Both the position numbers and the translations under genes were made by a program. From an uncultured Alphaproteobacteria bacterium (GTDB taxonomy: Bacteria; Pseudomonadota; Alphaproteobacteria; Rickettsiales; UBA1997): 60,281 nucleotides of DNA. Below the pieces are notes generated by a model. That model had not been told where the DNA came from and searched no databases. It saw nothing but the letters and a program-made list of their open reading frames with translations. The stretch spans positions 1 to 60,281 of the forward strand of contig CAIZZE010000072.1 of the NCBI GenBank assembly GCA_903937405.1, in the 5' to 3' direction. This document shows positions 6,069 through 43,958 of the stretch, one piece after another (position 1 is the stretch's first letter; every line of letters starts with the position of its first letter).

Positions 6069-7022
6069 TTATCTAATCTCAACAAACGCTTTCTTGCGAA
6101 TATCCATCAAATTTCCTTTGGCTAAGGTTTGTAATTTCCTGCTAAAAATAGCATTGCGCGCGGCATTTAAATCCTGATCGGCGATTTTGGTTTCGGTTTT
6201 GGTATCAAACAATTTAAAAATATGAAAACCATCGGAAAGTGCAACCGGATCTGAATAGCCATCTTTTTTTAATTTGGAAATCGCATTATAAATTTTTGGC
6301 TCAATATCAGATTGCGAAACCCAGCCGATTTCACCATTATTTTCGGCATTTATTCCATTAGAAAATTGCTTTACCAAATTTTTGAAATCCGCTCCCTGCC
6401 TAAGCTCAATTACCAATTTTGCTGCAAATTGCTCCGCATTTTGCGCTGATTTTCCGGTTGGAGAAATCAAGATTTCAGCAACGTAAAATTTTTTGACATC
6501 AGTATTAAATTTATGCTGTTCAAAAAATTCTCTCACCTCAACTTCGGTAACTTTTACTCGGGATCGCAAAGTTTCAGAAATAATTTTTGACCATAAAATT
6601 TCGGCTTCAATCTGCTTCAAATAATGATCGAATGAAAAACCATTATTGATAAAGAAAATTTTAAACTGGGTTGGATTTTTCTTTTGCTGTAAAGCCACCA
6701 TTTCCACAGCATCAGCCACTTCTTCAGGAGTTGCTTCAATTTTTAAAGTTGCCGCTTCCTGCCTGATTAATTCTTCATCAACCATTTTATCGAGAATTTG
6801 GTTGAGCAATAATTTCTGGTCGTCAATTGATTGAATCGAGATTTTGGCAGAAGTTACAACATAGCGATAGCGATCAATTAGTTCAGAATTTGTAATCGCT
6901 TTATTATTGATTTTAGCAGTAATGAAATCACCGCTATTGGCAGGAATATTTAGTTTTAATTGAGCTGCGAATGAAGAAAGATTTGTCCAAAAAAGAAGAA
7001 TCAGAAAAATCAGTTTTTTCAT
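6069..7022 (-). CDS. SurA-like periplasmic chaperone / parvulin-type peptidyl-prolyl isomerase
   Basis: Signal peptide (MKKLIFLILLFWTNLSSFA), a SurA-N-like region, and a C-terminal rotamase domain (GEIGWVSQSDIEPKIY...GFHIFKL). Confidence 0.7.
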   Translation of the reverse strand: MKKLIFLILLFWTNLSSFAAQLKLNIPANSGDFITAKINNKAITNSELIDRYRYVVTSAKISIQSIDDQKLLLNQILDKMVDEELIRQEAATLKIEATPEEVADAVEMVALQQKKNPTQFKIFFINNGFSFDHYLKQIEAEILWSKIISETLRSRVKVTEVEVREFFEQHKFNTDVKKFYVAEILISPTGKSAQNAEQFAAKLVIELRQGADFKNLVKQFSNGINAENNGEIGWVSQSDIEPKIYNAISKLKKDGYSDPVALSDGFHIFKLFDTKTETKIADQDLNAARNAIFSRKLQTLAKGNLMDIRKKAFVEIR

Positions 7023-8350
7023 TTTTGTGATACCGCTTTATAAACGTCAACGCCGCGAACCAGATCAATTGCACGCGCCAGCTGGTAGTCCTGACTATAA
7101 AGATCAATATTATCATCACCAACTTTCTCTTTTTTAGAGTCAATTATAGCTTCCTGAATTTGAACTTCGATATGACCTTTCAAATCAGCTTCAGCATCAC
7201 GATCAACTTTTAATTGTTTTTCAATTTTAGCGTTAGTCACTTCAATATCAGGCTGAATGCCGGAAGCCTGAATTGATTTGCCGCTTGGAGTATAGTAAAG
7301 CGAAGTTGTTAAACGCAAAGCACCGTGGTTTTTTTCTAATGGAATTACAGTTTGAACCGAACCTTTGCCAAAAGATTTAATACCCATCACAACCGCGCGA
7401 TGGTGATCTTGCAAGGCTCCAGCGACAATTTCAGAAGCCGAAGCTGAACCATCATTAATCAAAACAACAATTGGCAAATGCGCGATTAAAGTTTCATCAG
7501 CTTCATCCTTATATTCTTTTGATTCCGAATTGCGGCCTTTAATTGAAACGATCACCTGATCTTTATTTAAAAATGTATCACTAACTTTAATGGCCTGATC
7601 CAGTAATCCGCCTGGATTATTACGCAAATCAAGAACTAAGCCTTTAAGATTTTTTTCACCAATTTGGCTTTTCATTTTTTTCAATTCTGCAGCCAAACCA
7701 GAATAAGCCTGCTCAGAAAAAGTATTGATTTTAATGTAAGCAACATCTTTGAACTTGGCCGATTTCACAGCTTTAACCTTGATAACCTGACGAGTAATAA
7801 TTTTTTCAAGCGGAGCTTTTTCGCCTTTGCGCAAAATCGTAACTTTAACTTTAGTTCCCGGTTTGCCGCGTAATTTTTTAACAACTTCTTCAATGGTTAA
7901 ACCAATTATCGATTTATCATCAACTTTTGTGATGTAATCTCCTGACTGAATTCCAACCTTAAATGCCGGCGTGTCATCAATTGCTGACACAACTTTTACA
8001 ACTGAAAATTCCAAAGTAATTTCAATACCAACTCCACCAAATTCACCTTTGGTTTGCACCTGCATTTCTTTTAATGCGTCTTCATTTAAATAAGATGAAT
8101 GAGGATCAAGAGATGATAAAAGACCAGATGCCGCGGCTTCAGCTAATTGACGATCAGTTTTTTCTTCAACATAATCTTTTTTTACTCGCGAAATCACATC
8201 TTCTAAAAACTCTTTTTGATCTTCTTGAGCTGAAGAAATTTTATCCCCTAATTCAATCTTTTTTATCTGAATTTGCGATAATGAAACCGCTGAGAAAAAA
8301 CCGATAAAAGTAGAGATGACAACGATCGCGGAAATTTTAAGATTTTTCAT
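7019..8350 (-). CDS. ctpA: Carboxy-terminal processing protease (S41 family) with PDZ domain
   Basis: N-terminal membrane anchor, PDZ region (GIQSGDYITKVDD), and S41 catalytic block (LINDGSASASEIVAGALQD...GKGSVQ). Confidence 0.85.
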   Translation of the reverse strand: MKNLKISAIVVISTFIGFFSAVSLSQIQIKKIELGDKISSAQEDQKEFLEDVISRVKKDYVEEKTDRQLAEAAASGLLSSLDPHSSYLNEDALKEMQVQTKGEFGGVGIEITLEFSVVKVVSAIDDTPAFKVGIQSGDYITKVDDKSIIGLTIEEVVKKLRGKPGTKVKVTILRKGEKAPLEKIITRQVIKVKAVKSAKFKDVAYIKINTFSEQAYSGLAAELKKMKSQIGEKNLKGLVLDLRNNPGGLLDQAIKVSDTFLNKDQVIVSIKGRNSESKEYKDEADETLIAHLPIVVLINDGSASASEIVAGALQDHHRAVVMGIKSFGKGSVQTVIPLEKNHGALRLTTSLYYTPSGKSIQASGIQPDIEVTNAKIEKQLKVDRDAEADLKGHIEVQIQEAIIDSKKEKVGDDNIDLYSQDYQLARAIDLVRGVDVYKAVSQK

Positions 8351-30027: not shown

Positions 30028-32628
30028 ATGACCGACATAGAAAATAAAAATACAATACGTTCAACACTTACCTTAAAACTTCCATCTTCGGCAGGTTCTC
30101 AAACTTTGACGCTTAAAACTCCTGAAATCAAAAAAACTGGAAGTTCGTTAGTACAAGTTACGATCAAAGGCCGCAAAAAAGAAAATAGAGACGATGATCG
30201 CGCGCCGACAGCTTTAAATAAAAGCGAATTTGAAGCTCGTATGAAAGCGGTTTCCGAATCAAAAACAGAAGTTGCTGAAGTTAAAACTCATGAAATTCTA
30301 AGCAAAATCACCAAAGAAAAACGCAAACTTGTTGAAGAAGAATCGGAAAAAAATGAAGTTAAAAAACAAGAAGAAATCAAAGAAGAAGCCAAAGAAGAAT
30401 ATGTTGTAGCAAATGTCGAAGAAAAATCTCCGACTGCTATCGTTGAAGAAAAAGCACAACCTCAAAAAGTAAATTCAAATTATAGTTTAGACAGCTTTGA
30501 CGTTAGAAATAAAATCAGACAAAGCATTGAAGTCACTAATCGCCAAAAAGAAGAACGCGAAAAATTGATCGGCGTTAGAAAAAAAGAAGAACAAGATCGC
30601 TTAGAAAAAGAAAGAGTCGAAAGAGAAAAAAGAAAAGCTGTTAATAAAAAAACAATGGGCGGCGGCAATCATTTCAAAACTCCGAGTAAACTTAGCGAAA
30701 GCGAAGAAGCGGCGCGCAAAAAACCAAGTTTCAAAGAAGAACGCGGCAATACCAGAAAACAAACTTATATTATTGATGGCGATTCTGATGATAGCGAAGG
30801 TGGTCGCAGAAGAAGAAAAGCTAAATTAAGACAGCAACATGAAGATAATTCACAAAAAGAATATAAAAAAATCATTCGTGAAGTTGATTTACCAGAACTT
30901 ATTACCGTTTCTGAATTAGCAGAACGTATGTCGGAAAAAACCGGCGATGTTGTGAAAAAACTTTTCACCATGGGCATGGTTGTAACCAGTAACCAAGCGA
31001 TTGATGCTGATACAGCTGAAATTATCATCGGCGAATTTGGTCATAAAGCTACCCGCGTTTCTCACTCCGACGTTGAAAATGTTTTGGATGAAGGCAGCGA
31101 AACTTTAGAAACATTGCCACGCGCACCAGTTGTAACCATCATGGGTCACGTTGATCACGGCAAAACTTCATTACTCGATGCTTTACGCGAAACTGACACC
31201 GCAGCTGGCGAACATGGCGGCATCACACAACATATCGGCGCTTCCCGCATTTTAACTAAAGGCGGAAAATACATTACTTTCCTAGATACTCCAGGTCACG
31301 AAGCCTTTACTGAAATGCGTTCACGCGGTGCAAATATAACCGACATCGTAGTTTTAGTTGTAGCAGCTGATGATGGCGTAAAAGAACAAACAATTGAAGC
31401 AATCAGCCATGCTAAAGCGGCTGGCGTTCCAATCATTGTTGCGGTAAATAAAATTGACAAACCCGGCAGCGACCCAGAAAGAGCTAAACATGAACTTTTA
31501 ACTCACGAAATTATCGCTGAAGATTTAGGTGGTGAAGTTATGTTCATCCCGGTTTCGGCAAAAAATAAAATTAATTTAGAAAAACTTGAAGAAGCGATTT
31601 TGCTACAAGCTGAAGTTCTCGATCTAAAAAGCGTTTACGAAGGAAAGTCAAGCGGCGCGGTTCTTGAGTCTCGCGTTGATCCGGGTAAAGGCGTTATTGC
31701 AACTTTACTTGTACAAAAAGGCACGCTGAACATTTCTGATTTGATCGTAGTTGGAACATCTTACGGCCGCGTTAGAAAAATGTCGGATGATGCGGGTAAA
31801 AATATTAAATCTGCAACTCCATCAGTTCCGGTAGAAGTTTTAGGACTTGATAATGCGCCAAACGCCGGTGATAAATTCATGCAAGTTGACGAAGAAAGAC
31901 AAGCTCGCGAAATTATTTCTTATCGCGAACGCAAAGAAAAAGAAGCTAAAGCCTTAAAAAATTCGGCTAAATCTTTGGCTGATATTTTCCGTGAATCCGG
32001 CAAAGGTAAAATGAAATATCTAAACGTTATTATTAAAGCCGACGTTCATGGTTCAGCTGAAGCAATTAACGGCAGCGTTGTCAAACTAAACAATGATGAA
32101 GTTGCAGTTAAAGTTGTGCACATGGCAACAGGCGGCATTTCTGAAAGTGATGTGAATTTAGCCGCAGTTTCAAATGCCATTATCATTGGCTTTAACACTA
32201 GAGCCAACGCCACTGCGAAAGAAATGGCCAAACTAAAAAATATCGACATCCGCTATTATTCAATCATCTATAATCTAGTTGATGATTTGAAATTATTATT
32301 AACCGGAATGTTAGCTCCAAGCCAAAATGAAGAATATCTTGGCCAAGCTGAAATCAGACAAGTCTTCAAAGTTTCTGGCTCCGGAAAAATTGCCGGATCT
32401 TTTGTTACTGACGGATTGTTACGCAGAAATGCCAAAGCCAGATTGCTTCGCGATAATATCGTGATTCACGACGGAATTCTAAAAACCCTTAAACGCTTCA
32501 AAGATGATGTCAAAGAAGTTAAAGGTGGTTTTGAATGCGGTATTTCTTTTGAGGATTACGAGGATATCAAAGAAAAAGATATTGTTGAATGTTATGAAAT
32601 GGTCGAACAAAAAAGATCTTTTAACTAA
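30028..32628 (+). CDS. infB: Translation initiation factor IF-2
   Basis: Lys/Glu-rich N-terminal region, G domain ([24 protein letters not shown]) and C-terminal IF2 domains. The ATG at 30028 is preferred over the TTG at 30010. Confidence 0.9.
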
Positions 32629-32638
32629 TTCAAATTAT

Positions 32639-33553
32639 ATGAATAAAAAGAAAGCCTTTTCCTTGGTTGAAGCATCAATCGTTATTGTAATCGTTGGAGT
32701 TGCGATTGCTGCAATCACTCAAGGAACAAGGCTGGTTCAGCAATTTCGGCTTAACAGCGCCAGATCTTTAACTCAAAATTCACCAGTTCCTGCAACTGAT
32801 AATTTGGTCCTTTGGCTTGAAACCACCAGCACTAATAGTTTTCAACCAACTGGCTACAATAACAATGCTCCTTTAGCCGCGACATCCGGCACTAAAGTTT
32901 GGTATGATTTAAGCCGTAAGAATGATGCACTAAGCACTTCTAATTCTCCTTATTCGAGCAATCCTATTTACATCAAAAATGGTATTAATGGTTTGCCATC
33001 ACTCAAATTTGATGGTGTTAGCCAATATCTCGATTTTACTGATCCTTCAGCTCTAGTGAATGGTTCTTACACAGTTTTCGTAGTTGAACAACCAACCAAA
33101 ACCAGTGGAACTTTTAATTATTTTCTATCTTCAAAAAGTGGCTACTGCTATATTATTAACACATGCTTCAGCCTTGGTCACGAAAATATTACCAGCGGCA
33201 CTTATACAATTTATTTATCCAATTTTTCTAACTATATCACAACCACCGCATCTGATATTAGTGGACTTACTTACAGAACAGATCGTGCAATTTTACATAG
33301 TGCAATTTTTTCAACAATCGGCAGCAGAAAATATTTTTACAATGGCACGCTTGGTAAAAGCGACGGCAACACTACTGCCGTTAATGGCAATAGCGGCATG
33401 ACAATTGGCAATGCCGCATCTCTTTCAGGCGGTTTTTATCAAGGATTAATTGGTGAAATAATAATTTTTAACCGCGCTTTGGATAAAGATGAAAGATGGG
33501 CAATCGAAGCCTATCTCAGCAAAAAATGGGGAATTTCCGTAAATCAAAATTAG
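32639..33553 (+). CDS. Type IV pilin-like protein with C-terminal LamG/concanavalin-like domain
   Basis: Prepilin-type N-terminus (MNKKKA/FSLVEASIVIVIVGVAIAAI). The C-terminal part (GFYQGLIGEIIIFNRALDKDERWAIEAYLSKKWGI) is typical of LamG jelly-roll domains. Start trimmed from 32504. Confidence 0.65.
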   Translation: MNKKKAFSLVEASIVIVIVGVAIAAITQGTRLVQQFRLNSARSLTQNSPVPATDNLVLWLETTSTNSFQPTGYNNNAPLAATSGTKVWYDLSRKNDALSTSNSPYSSNPIYIKNGINGLPSLKFDGVSQYLDFTDPSALVNGSYTVFVVEQPTKTSGTFNYFLSSKSGYCYIINTCFSLGHENITSGTYTIYLSNFSNYITTTASDISGLTYRTDRAILHSAIFSTIGSRKYFYNGTLGKSDGNTTAVNGNSGMTIGNAASLSGGFYQGLIGEIIIFNRALDKDERWAIEAYLSKKWGISVNQN

Positions 33554-34854: not shown

Positions 34855-34898
34855 CAACCAAATGTTTTTAAATATCTATTAAAGAATAAGAATAATTT

Positions 34899-35981
34899 TT
34901 ATTTGCCCGATTTGGCTCTATTGCAACCTTTGCAAAGCATTTGGCAATTTTCTTGCGCAGTTTTGCCGCCCAAATGCCAAGGATTTATATGATCCGACTC
35001 CATTTCTTCTAGCTTAAATTCATCTGCGCATTTTACACAAATTCCTTTCTGCCTCTCAAATGATTCTCTTTTCTGATTATCGCTAAAAGCCCGAATGTTT
35101 AAGTGTTTTTCTTTGCGGGTTAAAACATATTCATAAATTCCTTTTTTGCTCGTTACATCTTCATCTTGCATAAGCTTAGAAATTTCTTCCTCGAGCTTTT
35201 TGTGGTCAAATTTTTTGTCTTTAAATTCATTGTAAAATTCGCCCCAAGCCAAACCCTTCATTTCTCTGCGATATTTTGAAAATACAACTTTTACCCAACT
35301 GATAACATTCTGAAAATAAAGCCATAATTCATTGGCGTTTGGCTCGTGCTGATGAACGGACATATAAGATTCTATGTTGCCCTTTGAAATCCAATCGATT
35401 GTGGTTTCTAAATATTCTTGGCGAATTGGCGAGCCACTCAAATAATTGCTTCCCAAGCCATAAGCAGCACAACCATTTTTGCTAAAATATCTTTTAGCAT
35501 CAGAAACAAACGAGCCAGAAAAAACCGCGTTTCTAAGCTCTTGATTGGTTAATTTTTCGCCAGCGATATTGATTGTTTTAAACCATTCTAATTTTTGGCT
35601 ATCAGTTCCACTGCATAAATAAACCATTAACTTATAGTTTAAGATTTGCTCTTGTTCGTCTTTTTGAAGATTGTGAAAATATTTGAACATAAACGCAAAA
35701 TCACCATTCACATATTGGCAAATTGAGATCGTTCTTTGTTGCCCATCAATCACTTCAAAATTGCCATTTTCTTGAACCGCCCAATACATAACATTAAGCG
35801 GAAAATTTTTTGTGATAGTTTCAATCACCGCTTCTCTTTGCTTATCTTTGTAAATAAATTCTCTTTGATAAGGAGGGCGAATATCCAACTTTCCGCCAAA
35901 TCCAACAACTCCATTTTCTTCGTTGTCTTGATAGCTTTCCGTAAGCTCGCGGACCGTTATTTCTTTTAGTTCGATTTTCAT
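34899..35981 (-). CDS. DUF262 (ParB-like/GmrSD N-domain) protein fused to a C-terminal HNH nuclease finger
   Basis: DGQQR motif is encoded at 35733-35747. The C-terminus is CVKCADEF...ESDHINPWHLGGKTAQENCQMLCKGCNRAK. Starts 3 nt after the upstream gene's stop. Confidence 0.8.
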   Translation of the reverse strand: MKIELKEITVRELTESYQDNEENGVVGFGGKLDIRPPYQREFIYKDKQREAVIETITKNFPLNVMYWAVQENGNFEVIDGQQRTISICQYVNGDFAFMFKYFHNLQKDEQEQILNYKLMVYLCSGTDSQKLEWFKTINIAGEKLTNQELRNAVFSGSFVSDAKRYFSKNGCAAYGLGSNYLSGSPIRQEYLETTIDWISKGNIESYMSVHQHEPNANELWLYFQNVISWVKVVFSKYRREMKGLAWGEFYNEFKDKKFDHKKLEEEISKLMQDEDVTSKKGIYEYVLTRKEKHLNIRAFSDNQKRESFERQKGICVKCADEFKLEEMESDHINPWHLGGKTAQENCQMLCKGCNRAKSGK

Positions 35982-35984
35982 TTC

Positions 35985-36803
35985 TTAGTTTTTGTCTTTT
36001 AAAAATTTTTTAGCATTTAACCCAACCACCACTTTTTTACCAGTTTTGGCTTCTAACTCTTTACGGGCATTGCCTGCAATTGCGCCGCCTTGCTTTGCAA
36101 CTTTCTTACTTTCTTCAAAGTTTTTAGGATTTACAGCTTGCGAAATATCTTTGGTCGAAGCTTCGGCCAACATATTTAAAATAAGTTCAACGTTGGTCAT
36201 GTTGTCGCGCAAATTTTCTTTTTTTAAGCCCTTCAAAGCCTTGTATTCTTTGGTGGTTTTGTCGCTCCAACTTTTGGTGATAATATCGGTGAGGCTGGCA
36301 AATTGTTGCCCTTCTTTTAATCCTAAACGTCTCCATTCGTCGGTTAATTCTTTTCTAATTTCTATGCTTTTGAGCCGCTGATTTATCCAATTTTGGCTGT
36401 AGCCAAGGTTTAAATATTGCTGTAAAGCGCGGTCAATTGTTAATTCCGGATCTTGCATTTCGTCCAATCTTTCGCTGGCGACTTTTGCCAGCCAAAGTTT
36501 GAAAGGTTCAGCTTTTTTTGACGGAATTGATTGGATAAGGCGAAAAAGCTGCTGGGTTGTTGCAACGTCGGTTTTGTAAAATTTGCCATCTTCGGATAAC
36601 ATTTTAAGTTGTCCCAAGTTTTGGGACAACTCGCTGCCTTCATTTTTTAGCTTCGTCTTTAATGCGCTCCAATATTTTCTAGCTCGCGGGCTTTCGGTTA
36701 AAATTACAATCACATCAACAACAGAAAAATACCATTGCTCGTCTTCTTCGCTCCAAAGGCTGCGAACTTTTTTATCTTCAAATAATTTTATTTGGTTTTT
36801 CAT
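35985..36803 (-). CDS. Bro-N domain protein with DinD-like C-terminal half
   Basis: Bro-N-like IKLFEDKKVRSLWSEEDEQWYFSVVDVIVILTES, and a C-terminal QGGAIAGNARKELEAKTGKKVV resembling DinD-type proteins. The ATG at 36801-36803 forms an ATGA overlap with the methyltransferase stop. Confidence 0.7.
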   Translation of the reverse strand: MKNQIKLFEDKKVRSLWSEEDEQWYFSVVDVIVILTESPRARKYWSALKTKLKNEGSELSQNLGQLKMLSEDGKFYKTDVATTQQLFRLIQSIPSKKAEPFKLWLAKVASERLDEMQDPELTIDRALQQYLNLGYSQNWINQRLKSIEIRKELTDEWRRLGLKEGQQFASLTDIITKSWSDKTTKEYKALKGLKKENLRDNMTNVELILNMLAEASTKDISQAVNPKNFEESKKVAKQGGAIAGNARKELEAKTGKKVVVGLNAKKFLKDKN

Positions 36804-37765
36804 TTTTGTGGTTTTTTGTTTTTGATTAAAATTCGAAAATACGGACATTTGCCATTTATCGACAAATCTTTTTCGTCATCGCCTTTTCTGAATTTTATAA
36901 TTTCAAATTGTGCGGGATTATATTTATCTAAAAATGTTATCGGAACACCCATCGCGCCAGCATAATCGGCGGGAATATCTTTGGTTTTATCAACATTTAT
37001 GGCGTCGTAATTATCATATTTTGGATATTCTTTTGATGAGTAGTTTTTGTATAGAATCAAATCTTCATGTCTTTTTTTAATTTCTAAGTTAGTGAACCAA
37101 GTAACGCCCGAAACTCTAATCATTCCTTCCTTATGATCTTCGGCGGTTGCATAATCTTCATAATGTTTATTAATAAAATGCGCCGCTCCGCCTTTAAATC
37201 CATAACCCAACCAAATTTTATTATCTTTTATAAGTTTAAAAATCTCTTTATAGGTTATAGCATTTTGATGCCCAACAATCAGAAATTTTTTGTCATATAA
37301 AACCAACTGCGAAACATATTCGCGAAACAGCGAAAATGGCGGATTTGTCACCACAATATCCGCTTGTTTCAAAAGCTCGATACATTCGGCACTTCTAAAA
37401 TCGCCATCGCCTTTTAAAGACTTAACGCCAATTTCATTTTTATCTGGCAAATTATTGCCGTTTTTATCGCCTTCATATTCCAAATAAATCGCCTGCTCGC
37501 TGTCGTTTTTACTAAACAAATCTATGTCTTGGTTTTTGTAGCAAGTGGCGATTAATTTTTTCAATTTTAATTTCTCAAAATTGTGCGAAAAATAATGAAA
37601 AAAATTGCTAACTCGCGGGTCGTCGCAATTGCAATAAACAACTTTGTCTTTGAAATGATTTTTGTAATTTTTGAGTTCTAACTCAATGTCGCAAAGCTGG
37701 GTGTAAAACTCGTCTTTCTTTGAATCTCTAGCTTTGTGAAGGTTTTTATTTGAAGATTTTTTCAT
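36800..37765 (-). CDS. N6-adenine DNA methyltransferase, EcoRI-methylase-like family
   Basis: Catalytic NPPF is encoded at 37334-37345 (DIVVTNPPFSLFREY). Upstream are DEFYTQ and VVYCNCDD (SAM-binding-like). Confidence 0.75.
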   Translation of the reverse strand: MKKSSNKNLHKARDSKKDEFYTQLCDIELELKNYKNHFKDKVVYCNCDDPRVSNFFHYFSHNFEKLKLKKLIATCYKNQDIDLFSKNDSEQAIYLEYEGDKNGNNLPDKNEIGVKSLKGDGDFRSAECIELLKQADIVVTNPPFSLFREYVSQLVLYDKKFLIVGHQNAITYKEIFKLIKDNKIWLGYGFKGGAAHFINKHYEDYATAEDHKEGMIRVSGVTWFTNLEIKKRHEDLILYKNYSSKEYPKYDNYDAINVDKTKDIPADYAGAMGVPITFLDKYNPAQFEIIKFRKGDDEKDLSINGKCPYFRILIKNKKPQK

Positions 37766-37838
37766 TGTTGAGACATGGCATAATTAACTTTCCCCTGCAT
37801 ATCTATGCCAAAGTAAAAATTTAATTTAGCAGGTTTGA

Positions 37839-38267
37839 TTAAGAATATCTATGCTTAACTTTTTTCTCTTTTGGTTGAGAAATTGAAACTGCAAGCGCTA
37901 CTAAATTTCTTTTTGATTGCGCGTTTTCAATTCGTTTAAAAGCGCGAACCAATGGCAGAAGTTCTTTGTCAAACTCTATTAATTTTTTTGATTGTCGTTT
38001 ATCGGTTGAGAAATCGTAATTGTAATAAGTTCTGTCTGCTTTAATTCCCTCAAAAAAAGCGCTGACTGGTTTTTCTAAAAGCTGTGCAAATTCGAATAAA
38101 CGACTGGCGCTAATTCGATTTTTTGCTTTTTCATATTTTTGAATCTGTTGAAAAGTAACTCCCGTCAACTCTCCCAGCTTATCTTGACTCATTCCGGCAA
38201 CAAGGCGGAATTGGCGTAATCTTGCAGCAATATGAACATCAATTGGTGTGATTTTGTCTAGTAACAT
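37839..38267 (-). CDS. XRE-family helix-turn-helix transcriptional regulator
   Basis: HTH_3 core (RLRQFRLVAGMSQDKLGELTGVTFQQIQKYEKAKNRISASRLFEFAQLL). Overlaps the lnt 3' end by 29 nt. Confidence 0.8.
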   Translation of the reverse strand: MLLDKITPIDVHIAARLRQFRLVAGMSQDKLGELTGVTFQQIQKYEKAKNRISASRLFEFAQLLEKPVSAFFEGIKADRTYYNYDFSTDKRQSKKLIEFDKELLPLVRAFKRIENAQSKRNLVALAVSISQPKEKKVKHRYS

Positions 38268-39795
38268 TGTGCCTCTTTGGTGTAAAGATTAGAAATAGCA
38301 GCATTGCCAGAACCAGCAATATTAAGGGTGTATAGCTATATTTTTCGTAAATTGTTGGAGCAAGATTTTTGACAAGATCAACGTCAATTATTCCAGATTG
38401 ATTCAAATTGATTCTATCTACCACGCGACCAAACGGATCAATAAAGGCCGTAATTCCAGTGTTCGCAACACGTGCTAATGAAATTCCCGACTCAATCGAA
38501 CGCATTCTCGCCATGTCAAAATGCTGATAAGGACCAGAACTGACGCCAAACCAAGCATCATTTGTTAAATTAACTAATAGATCGGGACGATTTTTTTTAT
38601 CACTAATCTGACCAGAAAAAATCACTTCATAACAAAGTAATGGGCTAAAAGAAAAGTTTGGAGTTTTGATTGTTTTAGGCCCCTCGCCTTGCGAAAAACC
38701 GACTGCGCCTTCAGTGATTTTATTGATGAAAGGGAAATATTTTTGCAAAGGCACATATTCACCAAAAGGAACCAAATGATGTTTATCGTAAGTTGCAAAA
38801 ACTCCATTCCAATCAAGAGCAAAAACACTGTTCCAAACATTTTTTAAATCATCTTCACTTCCTTCAATACGCAATCCGCCGGTAATTAGCGTGCCATTTG
38901 TCGGAGTTGCCAGTTTTAATTTTTCCAGCAATTGCGGGTTTGAGTCAAAAATATAAGACACTGAAGTTTCCGACCAAATTACAGAATTAATTCCTTCTAA
39001 ACTGCGCGAATTTGTCAGCTCAATATACTTTAAAAAATTACGGTATTTTTGTTGCGGATTCCATTTCATTTCCTGTTCAACATTTCCTTGAACTAGACGA
39101 ATAGTAGTTTTGTGATCATGAACTAATTTTTTTTCATCAATTGAAAAATAGCCGTAAATAAAATTTCCAACGAAAAAAACTGCGATAATTACAGCGAAAA
39201 TTTTATCGCCCAAAGTTCTTGTGGTAAAAAACAAGGTCGGAAATAAACAGGTTAAAACCGCTAAAACACTAAGTCCGTAAATTCCGAAAACATTCCCTGC
39301 TTGAGCAAAATTAACATCAAACATCCAAATATAGCCCAATAAATTCCAAGGAAATCCGGTAAAAAGAGTGGCGCGTAACATTTCGAAAAATAACCAGCAG
39401 AGCGCGAAAATAAGAATTTTTTGATAAGTAAAAAGTGGTCGAAATTTCTTGATAAAAAATTTATAACTAAGCGCGAATAGCGCCACATAAAGCGCCAACA
39501 CGCCTGGAATTAAAGTTAAAGCAAAAGGAATTAACCAAGCAAATTTTTCAGCATCCACTAAAAGCGAAATTGCGATCCAATAAACTCCAGTTAAAAAATA
39601 TCCAAATCCATAAGCAAAACCTAACCAAAAAACTGATTTTTTGGCCTCAATCTTTTCCAACAATAAATAAAAACCTGAAAGAGAAATTGCGCCGACTAAA
39701 AAAAAGTGAAATGGCGCAAAAGCTAAACTGCAAATCGCTCCTAAAAAAAGTGAAGCCGCATATTTATTTTTAAAAAATAATTTAATTTTTTTCAT
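38239..39795 (-). CDS. lnt: Apolipoprotein N-acyltransferase
   Basis: Polytopic N-terminal domain plus a C-terminal nitrilase-type CN-hydrolase domain containing the catalytic-Cys context SPLLCYEVIF. Confidence 0.88.
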   Translation of the reverse strand: MKKIKLFFKNKYAASLFLGAICSLAFAPFHFFLVGAISLSGFYLLLEKIEAKKSVFWLGFAYGFGYFLTGVYWIAISLLVDAEKFAWLIPFALTLIPGVLALYVALFALSYKFFIKKFRPLFTYQKILIFALCWLFFEMLRATLFTGFPWNLLGYIWMFDVNFAQAGNVFGIYGLSVLAVLTCLFPTLFFTTRTLGDKIFAVIIAVFFVGNFIYGYFSIDEKKLVHDHKTTIRLVQGNVEQEMKWNPQQKYRNFLKYIELTNSRSLEGINSVIWSETSVSYIFDSNPQLLEKLKLATPTNGTLITGGLRIEGSEDDLKNVWNSVFALDWNGVFATYDKHHLVPFGEYVPLQKYFPFINKITEGAVGFSQGEGPKTIKTPNFSFSPLLCYEVIFSGQISDKKNRPDLLVNLTNDAWFGVSSGPYQHFDMARMRSIESGISLARVANTGITAFIDPFGRVVDRINLNQSGIIDVDLVKNLAPTIYEKYSYTPLILLVLAMLLFLIFTPKRHNVTRQNHTN

Positions 39796-41833
39796 TTCTT
39801 ACATAAACCTCATAATCTTGCGTGATCTTCACGGTTGTAGGCTTTGCCTGATCAAAAATACTCGCTTTTTCTCCGGTTATAAATCTTAATTTTTTTAACG
39901 GTTTAACTTTTTTTGTAACTATGATGTGATTTACTAAATGAAAATTTGGGAGGAATAATTTTTTAAATTCAGCATCAATAAAATAATATTCCAAAACGCC
40001 GATTAAACAGCGATGCTCTTTGTCTAAAATATCTGGCGTATTATTTACAAAAATCACTTTCACCTTGTCATTTTTAATTTGATCAACGATGTCCAAAAAA
40101 AGATAATAGCGCGTAAATGCGACATCAGTATCTCTAATTGGAAAAATTAGCGGACTACCTGCCTCTCCTTGATTTGCTTGGGCTGCCGAGATATGAAACT
40201 TGCCGTAATTAATTTTTTGCAAGTAATTTAAAAGTGGAAATTGATGCGCAATCATGGTTGATAAAACTATAATTCCATCCTCTTTTTTAGGTGCATATTC
40301 ATGAGAATAATAAGTCATGAAATCAGAAATTTTATTGGGATAAGTATAATAACTATCGTGCCTAACCAGATTTATTACTGAAGTAATGTATGAATAAAGC
40401 AGACATGAAATTGAAGTTAAAACTACAAAAACAAAAAACGGCGAAAATTTGGGAAAAAATTTGGCGTAAATTTTCTTTTCAAAAAAGAAAAGAACCACAA
40501 AAAGAATAGATAAATTAACCGAAATATAAGCCCATCCGCCAAGGTAGCGCAAGGTTAGGATTGCAATAGTTAGAAGTGTTAAATAACCAAATAAAAACAG
40601 GATAATTTTTTTGGCAGAGAAAAATTTACGGCGCTGTTGGGCAGTTAATTTTTTAGCGAAAAAAAACGGGTAAATTAGAATTGTCAGCCACCAAATATTT
40701 ACAAAACCGCCAAGACCAAAAATTGAAGCGGGTAAAATTTCTAAATCAAAAATCGGTAAAAAAATCAAAGCAGCGCTGATAAATTGATTCTCCATTATTG
40801 AAAATTGTTTTGAGCTAAAAAGATCAAAAAGAAATTTGGCAAAACAGATTGTTGCAACTGCATAAAAAACCACGATTTGGTCAATAGTGCCAATGTTTTC
40901 AACGATAATCAAAAGTGATGCGCCGCAATAAAAACAGAAAAGGATTTTATCATTGGCGCTAAATTTAAAGCGCGAAAATATTAAAAATATAAAAGCAAAA
41001 ACTGCAACGCGCGACGCGATATGTCGCCAGAAATTTTCGATAAAAACGTGGTAATCATAATAAGCATTGTAAGTTTTTGACCACATCGGAACCATGAATT
41101 CAAAGAATTCAGGGGTTAATTTTATCATTAAAAATAGATAAAAAATACCAACGAGATACATTACGAGCTTATCAAATTCGTAAAAAAAGCGCAGAGATTT
41201 TTTTTGCCAAAAGTGATAAAATTCGACAAAAATCATCAAGCATAAATAATGTGGCTTAATGCATGGAATCAATCCCATCAATATTCCACGCCAAGTTAAT
41301 TCTTTTTTTGTAAACTGATTTTTTCTTGCAAATGAAAAAGAAATATAAGGATAAAGTGCCATTAAAAGCAGGCTGGTTTTAGTACCAAATTCTGCAATTT
41401 CTAAAGCGCGCGGTCTCAAGAAAAAACCTAAAAAATAGCCGATAATAATCAGATTATAATGAGCTTTATTCTCATAAATCGTGGTGCGTTTCAAGATTTG
41501 CGCCGACCAAAATATTGACAAAAGTGCCAGCAGATTAATCACAATTTCCGACATGAAAATCGGGTTTATATTTAGGATTTGCGCCAACTCATATTCCAGA
41601 GCATAAAAATAAAAAGAGATCGGGAAATTGCTTTCAAAAAACTCATAATAATAACGTCCGCCTTCAGCAACTTTTTTGCCTAAGTTCAGGTAAACACCGG
41701 TATCAGAACCAATATCAATTAAAGAACGAAAAAAAATACTGGCCAAAAAAATCAGCAGGCAAGCGCTTTGCAGGAAAATTCTTAAACCGAAAAATTCAGT
41801 CAAAGATTTTTTATTAATTATTTTTTCTAACAT
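39782..41833 (-). CDS. Large polytopic membrane protein, GT-C (ArnT/PMT-like) glycosyltransferase candidate, paralog 1
   Basis: About 12 TM segments, first-loop acidic motif DIGSDTGVYLNLGKKVAEGGRYYYEFFESNFPISFY, and a soluble C-terminal domain of about 200 aa. The ATG at 41833 is preferred over the TTG at 41854. Confidence 0.55.
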   Translation of the reverse strand: MLEKIINKKSLTEFFGLRIFLQSACLLIFLASIFFRSLIDIGSDTGVYLNLGKKVAEGGRYYYEFFESNFPISFYFYALEYELAQILNINPIFMSEIVINLLALLSIFWSAQILKRTTIYENKAHYNLIIIGYFLGFFLRPRALEIAEFGTKTSLLLMALYPYISFSFARKNQFTKKELTWRGILMGLIPCIKPHYLCLMIFVEFYHFWQKKSLRFFYEFDKLVMYLVGIFYLFLMIKLTPEFFEFMVPMWSKTYNAYYDYHVFIENFWRHIASRVAVFAFIFLIFSRFKFSANDKILFCFYCGASLLIIVENIGTIDQIVVFYAVATICFAKFLFDLFSSKQFSIMENQFISAALIFLPIFDLEILPASIFGLGGFVNIWWLTILIYPFFFAKKLTAQQRRKFFSAKKIILFLFGYLTLLTIAILTLRYLGGWAYISVNLSILFVVLFFFEKKIYAKFFPKFSPFFVFVVLTSISCLLYSYITSVINLVRHDSYYTYPNKISDFMTYYSHEYAPKKEDGIIVLSTMIAHQFPLLNYLQKINYGKFHISAAQANQGEAGSPLIFPIRDTDVAFTRYYLFLDIVDQIKNDKVKVIFVNNTPDILDKEHRCLIGVLEYYFIDAEFKKLFLPNFHLVNHIIVTKKVKPLKKLRFITGEKASIFDQAKPTTVKITQDYEVYVRNEKN

Positions 41834-43865
41834 AAACCTCAATTTCCCTCTCAATAATACGTGAACTTTTCGAAATATTTAGATTTTTTTCATCAGCATA
41901 AAGCTCAACTTTTTTATCCAGATTTTTATATTGGATTATGCGGTTTAAGAAAGTGTAATTTTGAAGGAAAATTTTCTTAAATTCAGGATCATAAAAATAA
42001 TATTCTAAAAATCCGATTACGCATAAATTATCAACGCCGCTGCCTTTATTTTCGATAAAAAGCAGTTGGTTTTTTGGATTTAGCATTTGCTCCTTAACTC
42101 TTAGAAACAAATAGTTTTCGACGCTATTTATTTTACTTTTATTATTGATTTTCTCATACAAGAAAAATAGTTGCAAAGAAGGTAATTTATTTTGTTTTCC
42201 GGCATAATTAATCATCGGATAAGTTCCAGAAATTGCATTGGCAATCACTTCTATTTCATCATCATTTTTGGTGTTATTTTTCACTGTTTTAATCATTTCA
42301 TTATTCACATAATTTGTGGCATGAGATTGATCAGTAATTGCAAAAACCTGTAGGCTTAAAAAATAAGAAAAAACTGTAAAAATAACGCCGGCTGAAAATT
42401 GAGAGAATTTTTTTGTAGCAAAGAATTTTTGGTATAAATTTTGATAAAATCTGACTAATAAAATCAGAATTATCGTCGATAAAAACCAAGCTAAATTTCC
42501 GGTTTTTTTATTAAAAAACAGCACGATCGTAAAGATCGCTAAAGCACTAAAACAAAGCCACGAAATAAAATTACGCTGCAAAAAATAACGTCCAAAAAAT
42601 CCACCGGTTTGCAGATTTTCATTTTTTAAAATATTGCGCCATTTAGCTGATAAAATCATGGCGAAAATCCACCAAAAAGCACCGAGATTAAAAATAATTG
42701 CGGTGAAAATTGTTTTATCAAATTGTGGGATCAGGAAAATTACCATCAAAGCAAGGGTATCGCGACGCCAATTGATGTAATTATTTTTGACAATTTCAAC
42801 AAAGAGCAAAATAAAAAAAGGCAGAGAAAGTGAATAAAAAGCAAATCTTTGATCTATTCCACCAAGAAGTTCTGCGATTACAACCAGAAGAGATCCTAAT
42901 GAAGCGATGAATAATGCTTTCAGTAAACCGGGTTTTTTTACAAAGGAGAGACATAAAACCATTAAGAAAATAAAGGGCAAAAGATCTTCTTTGATTACAA
43001 AAAATATGCAAAAAGAACCGTTAAAATAAATTTTGGAAAAACTGGGAATTGCTGAAATATAGTCAGGAAAATGAAGGAATAAGAAAACCAAATAAGAAAC
43101 CAGCAAAGCTAGAGTTACATAGTTTTGTAGACGAAAAATTGTTTTAATTGATTTTTTTTCAAACAATCTGACCAGCTCAAAAACTATCACCAAAATGCCA
43201 TAATGCGGTTTAAGGCAAAATATCAGTGCCGCAATTATTCCTGCTATTATTTGATCGGATTTTTTTGGTCTTTCTAAAAGCCAAAAAGAAATATAAAGCA
43301 TTGCCAAAGCCAGATAAAATGTGGATTTGGTGCCAAATTCATTAAATGACAATGTAAATACACGAAGAAAAAAACCGCAGGCAAAAGCGAGAATAATTAT
43401 GTTAAAAGTGGTTTGATCTTTGATAGCAGATGATCTTTTTAAAATTTTTGCCGTGAAATAAAGCGCTAAAATTCCAACTAAATTGGTAAAAATTTCCAAG
43501 GCGATTATCGGATTTATGGCAAAAAATTTGGCAGGAATTTGGGCCAAAGATAAAAAATAAAAAACCAGCGGCAGATTATTTTCGAAAAAATCGAAATAAT
43601 ATTTGCCGCCATTTAAAAATTTTTGAGTAATTTCAAGACAAGCTGCCGAATCATGACCAATATCATGCGTTGATCTAATCAAAACGCTCAAAGCAATGAT
43701 TACAAGGCTTCCAAAAAAGGCACAGCTTTTGGCGGCAAAGACTTTTTTCAAAAAACCACCAATTTTAGAAATTTTACTAAGCAAAAAATCTTCGAGCTTT
43801 TTTCCTAAAATAAGCCTTTTTTCCTCGAAATTTTTTTGGATTTCCAATGTATCAAATTTCCGCAT
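41814..43865 (-). CDS. Large polytopic membrane protein, GT-C (ArnT/PMT-like) glycosyltransferase candidate, paralog 2
   Basis: Collinear with paralog 1 (HDIGHDSAACLEITQKFLNGGKYYFDFFENNLPLVFY; C-terminal GFLEYYFYDPEFKKIFLQNY versus GVLEYYFIDAEFKKLFLPNF). The ATG at 43865 is preferred over the TTG at 43940. Confidence 0.55.
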   Translation of the reverse strand: MRKFDTLEIQKNFEEKRLILGKKLEDFLLSKISKIGGFLKKVFAAKSCAFFGSLVIIALSVLIRSTHDIGHDSAACLEITQKFLNGGKYYFDFFENNLPLVFYFLSLAQIPAKFFAINPIIALEIFTNLVGILALYFTAKILKRSSAIKDQTTFNIIILAFACGFFLRVFTLSFNEFGTKSTFYLALAMLYISFWLLERPKKSDQIIAGIIAALIFCLKPHYGILVIVFELVRLFEKKSIKTIFRLQNYVTLALLVSYLVFLFLHFPDYISAIPSFSKIYFNGSFCIFFVIKEDLLPFIFLMVLCLSFVKKPGLLKALFIASLGSLLVVIAELLGGIDQRFAFYSLSLPFFILLFVEIVKNNYINWRRDTLALMVIFLIPQFDKTIFTAIIFNLGAFWWIFAMILSAKWRNILKNENLQTGGFFGRYFLQRNFISWLCFSALAIFTIVLFFNKKTGNLAWFLSTIILILLVRFYQNLYQKFFATKKFSQFSAGVIFTVFSYFLSLQVFAITDQSHATNYVNNEMIKTVKNNTKNDDEIEVIANAISGTYPMINYAGKQNKLPSLQLFFLYEKINNKSKINSVENYLFLRVKEQMLNPKNQLLFIENKGSGVDNLCVIGFLEYYFYDPEFKKIFLQNYTFLNRIIQYKNLDKKVELYADEKNLNISKSSRIIEREIEVYVRKNN

Positions 43866-43958
43866 CAGCACTTGCAAGTAAAAGGTTGAATTTTTCTTCG
43901 TAAAATAAAGAATAAAGGCAGCAGATAAATCTCTCTTCAATCAAAAATCAATTTATAA

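Follow-up and report, generated by a model that had tools for sequence, protein, structure and literature searches.

The nucleases GmrSD, BrxU and SspE begin with a DUF262 domain that holds an invariant DGQQR motif and end in a His-Me finger nuclease domain, all in one polypeptide of about 600 aa; their nuclease domain is DUF1524, they depend on or sense DNA modification, and they have no dedicated methyltransferase. Type II restriction-modification (R-M) systems have separate, coupled methyltransferase and nuclease genes with the methyltransferase gene upstream, and are plasmid-borne and horizontally transferred; the nucleases EcoRI and MunI are PD-(D/E)XK enzymes. Genes foreign to R-M can be inserted among R-M genes and co-transcribed with them, like PrrC in EcoprrI, an anticodon nuclease guarded by the R-M complex, and RhuM/ORF6N (PDC-S05). 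Escherichia coli DinD is an SOS gene product inhibiting RecA filaments (Uranga et al. 2011, cited in PMC4457935 and PMC6590174), an activity known within its family only for this protein, and dinD is LexA/SOS-regulated (PMC6590174). DdrC is a dimer which senses and immobilises nicks and double-strand breaks, and it was reported to have no homologues outside Deinococcus (PMC11347143). In this study, a stretch of 60,281 nucleotides from an uncultured Alphaproteobacteria bacterium of Rickettsiales (contig CAIZZE010000072.1 of assembly GCA_903937405.1; the whole stretch is referred to as the window) was analysed, in which a methyltransferase (M), a DinD/DdrC-family protein (BRO) and a DUF262-HNH endonuclease (R) are encoded one after the other between hisF on one side and an XRE regulator gene overlapping lnt on the other.

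Our results suggest that this locus is probably a small mobile Type II-like R-M module carrying an inserted DinD/DdrC-family gene, and not an obligate three-part system. The M-R core is of a known kind, already modelled in PADLOC as a Type II pair, and what is new here is the DinD/DdrC-family gene embedded in it. The open reading frame (ORF) call and the raw sequence of the window confirmed three minus-strand ORFs in the order M, BRO and R. M (36800..37765, minus strand, 321 aa) is an N6-adenine DNA methyltransferase of the EcoRI-methylase family according to Pfam, PADLOC and synteny; BRO (35985..36803, minus strand, 272 aa), which is the PADLOC candidate PDC-S13, is located between M and R; and R (34899..35981, minus strand, 360 aa) joins a DUF262 (ParB/Srx-like, nucleoside triphosphate (NTP)-binding) domain to an HNH endonuclease domain according to Pfam, PADLOC and Foldseek. 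The stop codon of M and the start codon of BRO overlap in an ATGA (36800..36803, minus strand), as M ends with ...CAA AAA TGA and the ATG of BRO overlaps this end, and a gap of three nucleotides, GAA, lies between the stop of BRO and the start of R (TAA-GAA-ATG; 35982..35984, minus strand). BRO was counted from the ATG at 36803, the longest ORF extending to 36848. The three ORFs, the overlap, the gap and the NPPF and DGQQR motifs had been described in an original prediction made from the sequence alone, and each of these details was confirmed by the ORF call or the raw sequence.

The methyltransferase-nuclease core

The M protein matched the Pfam EcoRI_methylase family at 9.1e-138 (aa 8-316 against profile positions 1-344 of 345), which bears out the family proposed for it earlier, and the PADLOC MTase_II model PDLC03297 over its full length at 1.2e-132. 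The catalytic motif IV, NPPF, was read from the sequence at 37334..37345 on the minus strand (aat ccg cca ttt within DIVVTNPPFSLF); this motif and the full profile match indicate a methyltransferase with intact catalytic and S-adenosylmethionine-binding motifs, as in Type II systems. The R protein matched the Pfam families GmrSD_N/DUF262 (2.2e-19) and HNH (1.9e-11), and the PADLOC REase_II model PDLC03418 at 4.3e-138 (residues 1-360 against profile positions 1-372 of 372). The original prediction placed the locus outside the Type I-IV architectures, which is not supported in view of the end-to-end matches of both proteins to the MTase_II and REase_II models. The DGQQR motif of the ParB/DUF262 NTP-binding domain of R, as in the N-domain of GmrSD-type nucleases, was read from the sequence at 35733..35747 (minus strand), and its residues D79, G80, Q81, Q82 and R83 were invariant in 38 homologues. 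The C-terminus of R matched HNH (PF01844) and HNH_5, with no Pfam match to DUF1524 at E<=0.01. The HNH (beta-beta-alpha-Me) core, C315xxC318...D330 H331...N345...C350, lies at 34920..35039 on the minus strand (Pfam HNH, aa 315-358), and its residues are invariant or nearly so in the alignment of homologues. The C-terminus reads in full C315xxC318...D330H331...N345...C350xxC353N354, so the CxxC...DH...N...CxxCN finger ascribed earlier to this DUF262 protein is present in the sequence and in the Pfam match, except that its last cysteine, C353, is peculiar to this lineage and is replaced by Asp in most homologues (consensus). A profile search matched the HNH domain of PDB 4h9d at 1.3e-5. Foldseek on the AlphaFold2 (AF2) model of R returned the HNH nickase 4h9d, ParB/Noc/sulfiredoxin folds and BrxU, and these matches were weak because the model itself is only moderate (pLDDT 69). 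As compared to GmrSD, BrxU and SspE, R thus shares the domain order and the DGQQR motif in one polypeptide; however, it has a zinc HNH domain, is 360 aa long and is almost always paired with an adenine methylase.

The loci of R were scanned with one genome per species, which gave at least 591 loci, and the best 80 of them were kept for the counts given here. Close homologues of R number more than 8000 and are almost all 360 aa long; those of the 80 kept loci are 66-88% identical and come from at least 15 bacterial and archaeal phyla. The kept loci belong to Rickettsiales, Bacteroidota, Bacillota, Actinomycetota, Acidobacteriota, Campylobacterota, Spirochaetota, Planctomycetota, Chloroflexota, Verrucomicrobiota, bacteria of the candidate phyla radiation (CPR) and two archaeal metagenome-assembled genomes (MAGs). 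A homologue of M was located immediately upstream of R on the same strand in 75 of the 80 loci; among the remaining five, M was downstream of R in one, three were cut by contig ends and one had no M. The gap between M and R was 25 bp or less in 66 of the 75 pairs, with a 4-nt overlap in 29, and in the relatives lacking BRO the same ATGA couples M straight to R. An EcoRI-family methylase is therefore adjacent in 76/80 loci, and R is not the stand-alone nuclease without cognate methyltransferase that is typical of the GmrSD type. The M-R pair was found on about 50 plasmids, where PGAP annotates it as 'DUF262 domain-containing protein' and 'adenine-specific methyltransferase EcoRI family protein', and it is rare in phages, a homologue of R being present in five phage records. 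No paper describing this R family, or pairing a DUF262-HNH protein with an EcoRI-family methylase, was found in the searchable literature. The adjacency and co-inheritance of the two genes, together with the PADLOC assignments, conform to Type II R-M, and M and R make up a two-gene Type II-like R-M module with a nuclease of an unusual kind, which is not a PD-(D/E)XK enzyme and may need NTP for cutting. The claim that the methylase and the DUF262-HNH protein are a dedicated pair is thus upheld, and because they are a dedicated and co-inherited pair, methylation-protected restriction is the natural reading.

The M-R pair could instead work like SspABCD-SspE, with DUF262 reading the methyl mark of the host and thereby activating R against invaders. 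The characterised DUF262 domains of GmrSD, BrxU and SspE sense modified DNA (PMC12065111, PMC12707154), and the activity of SspE depends on host modification (PMC9646914). However, the layout of M followed by R, the ATGA coupling and the plasmid-borne spread are typical of Type II R-M, the nuclease domain of R is a classical zinc HNH and not DUF1524, and R with adequate upstream sequence was without M in only one of the 80 kept loci, as expected if R is toxic alone. Logic of the SspE type is accordingly considered quite improbable for this pair. As to the recognition site, neither palindrome avoidance in the window nor the pooled flanks of 80 carrier and 77 non-carrier loci gave a site, and no depletion specific to carriers was seen in these flanks. 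In the window, GTAC (observed/expected ratio 0.30, 18 against 59 expected) and GGCC (0.47, 61 against 129) were under-represented, AATT was not depleted (1.06), and GAATTC was depleted mildly (0.47, 14 against 30). The strong scarcity of GTAC and GGCC may reflect R-M pressure on the two sites, either in the past or still acting, apparently unrelated to this cassette.

The M-R junction carries inserts in nine of the 75 loci and is a hotspot. In L065 (1-7083), the junction holds an OLD nuclease (ATPase-TOPRIM) and a DinD-type PDC-S13 gene of a second subfamily; in L072 (400-7089), RhuM, a second EcoRI-family M, an OLD-like protein and ORF6N; and in L039 (530-3823), DUF6261. Small ORFs of unknown kind are also among the inserts found elsewhere. 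M-R pairs with and without an insert at the same junction offer a natural experiment on what embedded accessories add to restriction. Present in at least 591 species-level genomes, from alphaproteobacteria to archaea and CPR, M-R ranks with the R-M modules of widest transfer in this analysis, and R could show whether a classical restriction enzyme, blocked by methylation, can work with a DUF262 'modification reader'.

The BRO protein and its relatives

BRO starts with a Bro-N DNA-binding domain (aa 12-107; 36483..36770, minus strand; Pfam PF02498, 5.1e-11), which is followed by a DinD/DdrC-like helical C-domain (about aa 122-254; 36042..36440, minus strand) with the motif KGLKKENLRDNMTxxEL, recognised by the DinD/DdrC comparisons. 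Its AF2 model (pLDDT 78.8) likewise consists of the Bro-N domain and then a helical domain. The protein matched the PADLOC PDC-S13 model PDLC04920 at 3.2e-133 (aa 2-270 against 2-272 of 286), and its family is very large, with more than 8000 word-sharing homologues at 75-100% identity and 824 clusters (50% identity, E<=1e-30). E. coli DinD matched PDLC04920, the own model of BRO, at 2.2e-16 over DinD aa 122-250; hhalign of the BRO family against DinD gave 6e-5, and BLASTP of BRO against DinD was collinear but weak (21% identity, E 0.06). Judged by these sequence comparisons, the C-domain of BRO is clearly homologous to that of DinD, and the Bro-N start and the DinD-like C-terminal half noted earlier are both confirmed. 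The two proteins share a Bro-N-type N-domain followed by a helical C-domain, a length of 272 (BRO) and 274 aa, and the motif KGLKK...D.M..EL; they differ in subfamily, as DinD matched another PDC-S13 model, PDLC04919, at 2.4e-121, and dinD is a stand-alone LexA-regulated gene while BRO is embedded in an R-M operon.

The relation to DdrC is more remote. Among the PDB matches returned by Foldseek for the BRO model, the top six were all DdrC chains (probability 0.98-1.00, E 6e-4 to 2e-2, TM score only 0.3-0.5), and these were the only significant fold matches. The NCBIfam model of DdrC (NF033622) matched BRO over residues 136-222 at E 3.8e-4, with 19.8 bits against a cut-off of 150 bits, and BRO is a remote relative of DdrC and not a member of NF033622. 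A profile of 40 diverse members of the BRO family had DdrC as its top match in the PDB (4.8e-3), hhalign of the BRO family against a DdrC alignment gave 1.1e-4 with a probability of 56%, and all six DdrC homologues aligned in register with the BRO family HMM (hidden Markov model), in the C-domain only. The C-domains are thus in register in four independent sequence tests, at 14-18% identity between DdrC and BRO, and both proteins have an N-terminal DNA-binding domain and a helical C-domain, which is dimerising in DdrC. In contrast to BRO, DdrC was described as a radiation-response protein restricted to Deinococcus and not as part of a defence operon. No Pfam match to Bro-N was obtained in the DdrC homologues even at E<=10, and since the sequence tests align only the C-domain, homology of the N-domains is suggested by the fold match. 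DdrC appears to have its C-domain, and probably the whole fold, in common with DinD and the PDC-S13 Bro-N family. A common C-domain motif, [KR]G[LV]K...D.[ML]..EL, was also observed in DdrC (7UDI/7QVB/8U0G), E. coli DinD (L176:3761-4585) and the PDC-S13 family. In the literature searched, no paper mentions PDC-S13, and none ties DinD to Bro-N or R-M, bar one passing mention.

As a phage antirepressor (Bro-N with KilAC/ANT), BRO was considered and rejected: Pfam gave no KilAC/ANT match, the matching phage records are four and fragmentary, and the flanks are housekeeping genes. On a larger scale, the whole cassette could be a prophage remnant, made of an orphan phage methylase, an antirepressor and a homing HNH, as Bro-N and HNH are common in phages and R itself has homologues in the five phage records mentioned above. 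This ordinary-prophage alternative, which the original prediction had kept in view, is extremely improbable given that no phage genes are found in the flanks, that the BRO family matched just four short metagenomic 'phage' fragments among 50,697 phage records, and that M and R are a fixed pair across phyla.

BRO within and outside the R-M module

The three genes form a mobile unit. When the window was compared by blastn with locus L001, 90.4% identity was found over window positions 37769-34894 only, with unrelated flanks, and the same limits of homology were found for L085 and L087. The extent of the mobile trio, taken as the region where homology to a copy in another context stops, is therefore 34894..37769 (minus strand), and the homology to L001 ends within 5 nt of the outer ORFs. 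Five contexts of the trio were distinguished: hisF and XRE-lnt (the window, L002, L089, L170-171, L174-175, and all 18 contigs with an identical XRE protein); L001; L087/L088; between trpB and trpA with a Fic (PDC-S04) gene (L085/86); and next to a KilA-N gene upstream of glyA (L179). The trio has been transferred as one unit to at least five sites among housekeeping genes. The recurrence of the trio that the original prediction proposed to test for was found in at least five unrelated insertion sites, whose flanks are housekeeping genes and not large defence islands. An empty hisF/XRE junction was not found, as 18 of the 18 contigs encoding the identical XRE protein carry the cassette, and the insertion is inferred from the copies in other contexts because there is no empty site to show it. 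In all copies of the trio, BRO is inserted exactly within the operon with translational coupling kept on both sides, and the BRO copies are all at least 88% identical to the window protein, so that, by sequence, they look like one subclade of the BRO family. Mosaic alleles were observed at the hisF site (L174/L175; P0137/P0188), in which M is called as 331 aa and a BRO segment of about aa 36-75 within Bro-N is replaced, and in relatives the identity to the window varies for M, BRO and R independently of one another (84/97/88% in L001, for example); such alleles and identities suggest recombination between cassettes.

Among the 80 kept loci, a BRO of the window type was found between M and R only in L001 and L002, which are the closest relatives and Rickettsiales MAGs. 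The other 78 loci lack it, including L065 with its PDC-S13 gene of the second subfamily, and M and R are 66-88% identical whether BRO is present or not. An obligate three-component non-canonical restriction system, with the Bro-N protein as target or invader sensor for R, would explain the tight coupling of the three ORFs and the recurrence of the trio in at least five contexts. These comparative data, the wide occurrence of BRO without M and R and the existing PADLOC models of M and R as a Type II pair largely refute such a system, which we regard as very unlikely. The role of integral sensor proposed earlier for the Bro-N protein is not supported, as 66 of 75 M-R pairs abut directly with nothing between them.

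The homologues of BRO at 74-87% identity occur without this R-M pair, except in one decayed locus, and in 77 further metagenomic BRO loci (74-82% identity) neither this M nor this R was found (0/77). Approximately 20-25% of the 123 immediate neighbours at these further loci were Type I or IIG R-M subunits (HsdM 9, HsdS about 7, HsdR about 6 and IIG 8); BRO family members thus sit in Type I operons in the manner of other embedded accessories, although BRO, unlike PrrC, has no nuclease or ATPase domain. A REBASE-derived HsdS model (PADLOC Specificity_I PDLC03083) even contains a DinD-type N-terminal half, which DinD matched at 3e-114. A BRO homologue of 65% identity lies between cas4 and cas1 of a type I-B CRISPR-Cas operon, within its adaptation module (L167, Arcobacter cloacae plasmid pACLO, NZ_CP053834.1, 5995-6891). 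Others overlap an AbiP2 reverse transcriptase (RT; L172), or stand beside Abi_C at the same trpB/trpA site as L085 (L173), beside a DUF1016 nuclease at the site shared with the AbiP2 locus (L177), or beside a HEPN/MNT pair. Two housekeeping hotspots with a shared BRO were therefore recognised, trpB|trpA (L085 and L173) and M20-peptidase|pgpA (L172 and L177), where the partners differ, Fic with M and R versus Abi_C at the former and AbiP2 RT versus DUF1016 nuclease at the latter. At both of them BRO and the housekeeping flanks have similar nucleotide identities, the partner genes being different, and these look like small defence islets for which BRO serves as a stable anchor. BRO was also found beside decayed R-M genes: R is frameshifted and BRO intact in L087 (5823-6925), an HNH remnant of 60-72 aa lies beside an intact BRO in L081-84 (6927-7145 for the L081 remnant), and all three genes are broken in L089 (3952-6194), with assembly errors being possible in such metagenomic contigs. 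Because most M-R pairs abut directly, and because BRO outlasts the decay of R-M and pairs with other defence genes, BRO is an optional embedded accessory and not a defining third component of the R-M system. The R-M module is independent of BRO for its working, and the BRO family is promiscuous, being found inside many nuclease-based defence operons.

The main alternative, conceivable if on balance doubtful, is that BRO is functionally independent of R-M and either acts alone in defence or abortive infection or is a selfish hitchhiker, settling in compact defence islets; the trio would then be two co-travelling systems. PADLOC lists the family as the single-gene candidate PDC-S13, BRO remains intact beside decayed R-M genes, its partners are functionally heterogeneous, and it is the stable resident, with flank-like identity, at the two hotspots where they turn over. 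On the other hand, BRO was inserted exactly within the operon with coupling preserved on both sides in all trio copies, the trio has stayed together in at least five independent insertions, and the fusions of BRO to HsdS (PDLC03083) argue for physical cooperation with R-M enzymes in at least some lineages. BRO could also be a DNA-binding regulator of the operon like the C-proteins or BrxR/CapW, timing or inducing R after DNA damage or entry into a new host. Bro-N is a DNA-binding module, the BRO gene is just upstream of R and coupled to it as C genes often are, E. coli dinD is under LexA/SOS control (PMC6590174), and association with many defence types is also a property of BrxR-type regulators. 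Nevertheless, 66 of the 75 M-R pairs do without BRO, no operator-like repeat or convincing promoter was found around the cassette, and the conserved C-domain resembles break-binding or RecA-modulating proteins and not effector-sensing domains, which together make a regulatory role unlikely. In the promoter and terminator scan, promoter-like sites were fewer than in shuffled sequences, and nothing was found in the XRE-M spacer.

For the favoured reading, an R-M module with an embedded accessory, the following mechanism may be proposed. From the domains and the strict synteny, M (EcoRI-family, gamma-class, NPPF) would methylate adenine at some site on the host DNA, and R, with its ParB/DUF262 nucleotide-binding domain and zinc-bound HNH, would cut DNA without the M mark. 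This cutting is probably controlled by a conformational switch driven by NTP, as the analogy with GmrSD, BrxU and SspE suggests. In this lineage the DinD/DdrC-family gene would have been inserted exactly at the junction where the ATGA overlap couples M and R in other genomes, taking over the ATGA coupling to M and coming to lie 3 nt from R, after which the resulting trio would have spread as a unit to several housekeeping intergenic sites. BRO, like DinD and DdrC, may bind DNA breaks or recombination intermediates that result from the nuclease next to it, and it might in this way stop the recombinational rescue of cut invader DNA, or limit the damage of self-cutting. That BRO acts on breaks or RecA filaments arising from R can be put forward only tentatively from its family ties. 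Several points weigh against the favoured reading. Methylation-sensitive cutting by R is assumed, because the searchable literature gives no biochemistry for any member of the R family, and DUF262 domains are portrayed there as readers of modified DNA, which gives some scope to SspE-like logic; the k-mer analysis yielded no recognition site. The similarity to DdrC is marginal in each test (E 1e-4 to 5e-3, hhalign 56%, TM score 0.3-0.5), with the N-domains unaligned by sequence. Some partners of BRO, such as Abi_C, HEPN/MNT and Fic, are not obvious break-makers, the survival of BRO beside decayed R-M genes is as compatible with an independent function as with an accessory one, and the tight packing of the genes may merely be compaction.

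The spread of the DinD/DdrC family through defence operons is the most interesting lead. BRO links two orphan DNA-damage proteins, DinD and DdrC, to a very large family inside such operons, which places these two proteins in an evolutionary context and offers a mechanism that can be tested for the PADLOC candidate PDC-S13. PDC-S13 might be a general 'break-handling' accessory of nuclease-based immunity, which binds the nicks or ends made by its neighbour; this is a speculation with a rather low chance of being right. If it were true, PDC-S13 in Type I, II and IIG R-M, CRISPR adaptation, OLD and RT systems would block RecA-dependent rescue or feed ends to Cas1-Cas2, and the family would include E. 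coli DinD and Deinococcus DdrC as domesticated members. As a corollary, BRO would be the stable anchor of the islets, with the partner genes being swapped.

Surroundings of the cassette

The flanks of the cassette are housekeeping genes as originally described, with hisF and XRE-lnt on the two sides, and no integrase, transposase or meaningful flanking repeats were found at the locus. The two BRO junctions resemble each other over 37 nt, for which Lys-rich C-terminal tails and ATGAAAA starts account, the base composition of the cassette is not distinct from its surroundings, and Rfam gave no RNA family in the window. The XRE/HTH_3 gene (37839-38267, minus strand) overlaps the end of lnt by 29 nt, and its best NCBIfam match is the Wolbachia Wmk family at 8.8e-12, below the cut-off. 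The XRE gene lies outside the mobile unit because the homology to L001 begins at 37769, and it is probably a host gene rather than a C-protein. A controller (C) protein of R-M within the cassette was thus rejected, as XRE is outside the mobile unit and BRO is not HTH_3 by Pfam.

Directly upstream of M there is a 12-codon ORF, MQGKVNYAMSQQ* (window 37762-37800, minus strand), the TGA of which overlaps the ATG of the methylase in another ATGA. In L174, the methylase is called from the ATG of this ORF, which could be a leader peptide or chance. Upstream of lnt, a tandem pair of paralogous genes (39782-41854 and 41814-43940, minus strand) encodes polytopic membrane proteins of about 690-708 aa, with no Pfam family recorded for them in the matching contigs. 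Between infB and a cytochrome b561 gene, the ORF at 32504-33553 (plus strand) starts like a type IV pilin (KKAFSLVEASIVIVIVGV...) and weakly matches Laminin_G_3, and it may encode a pseudopilin-like surface protein.

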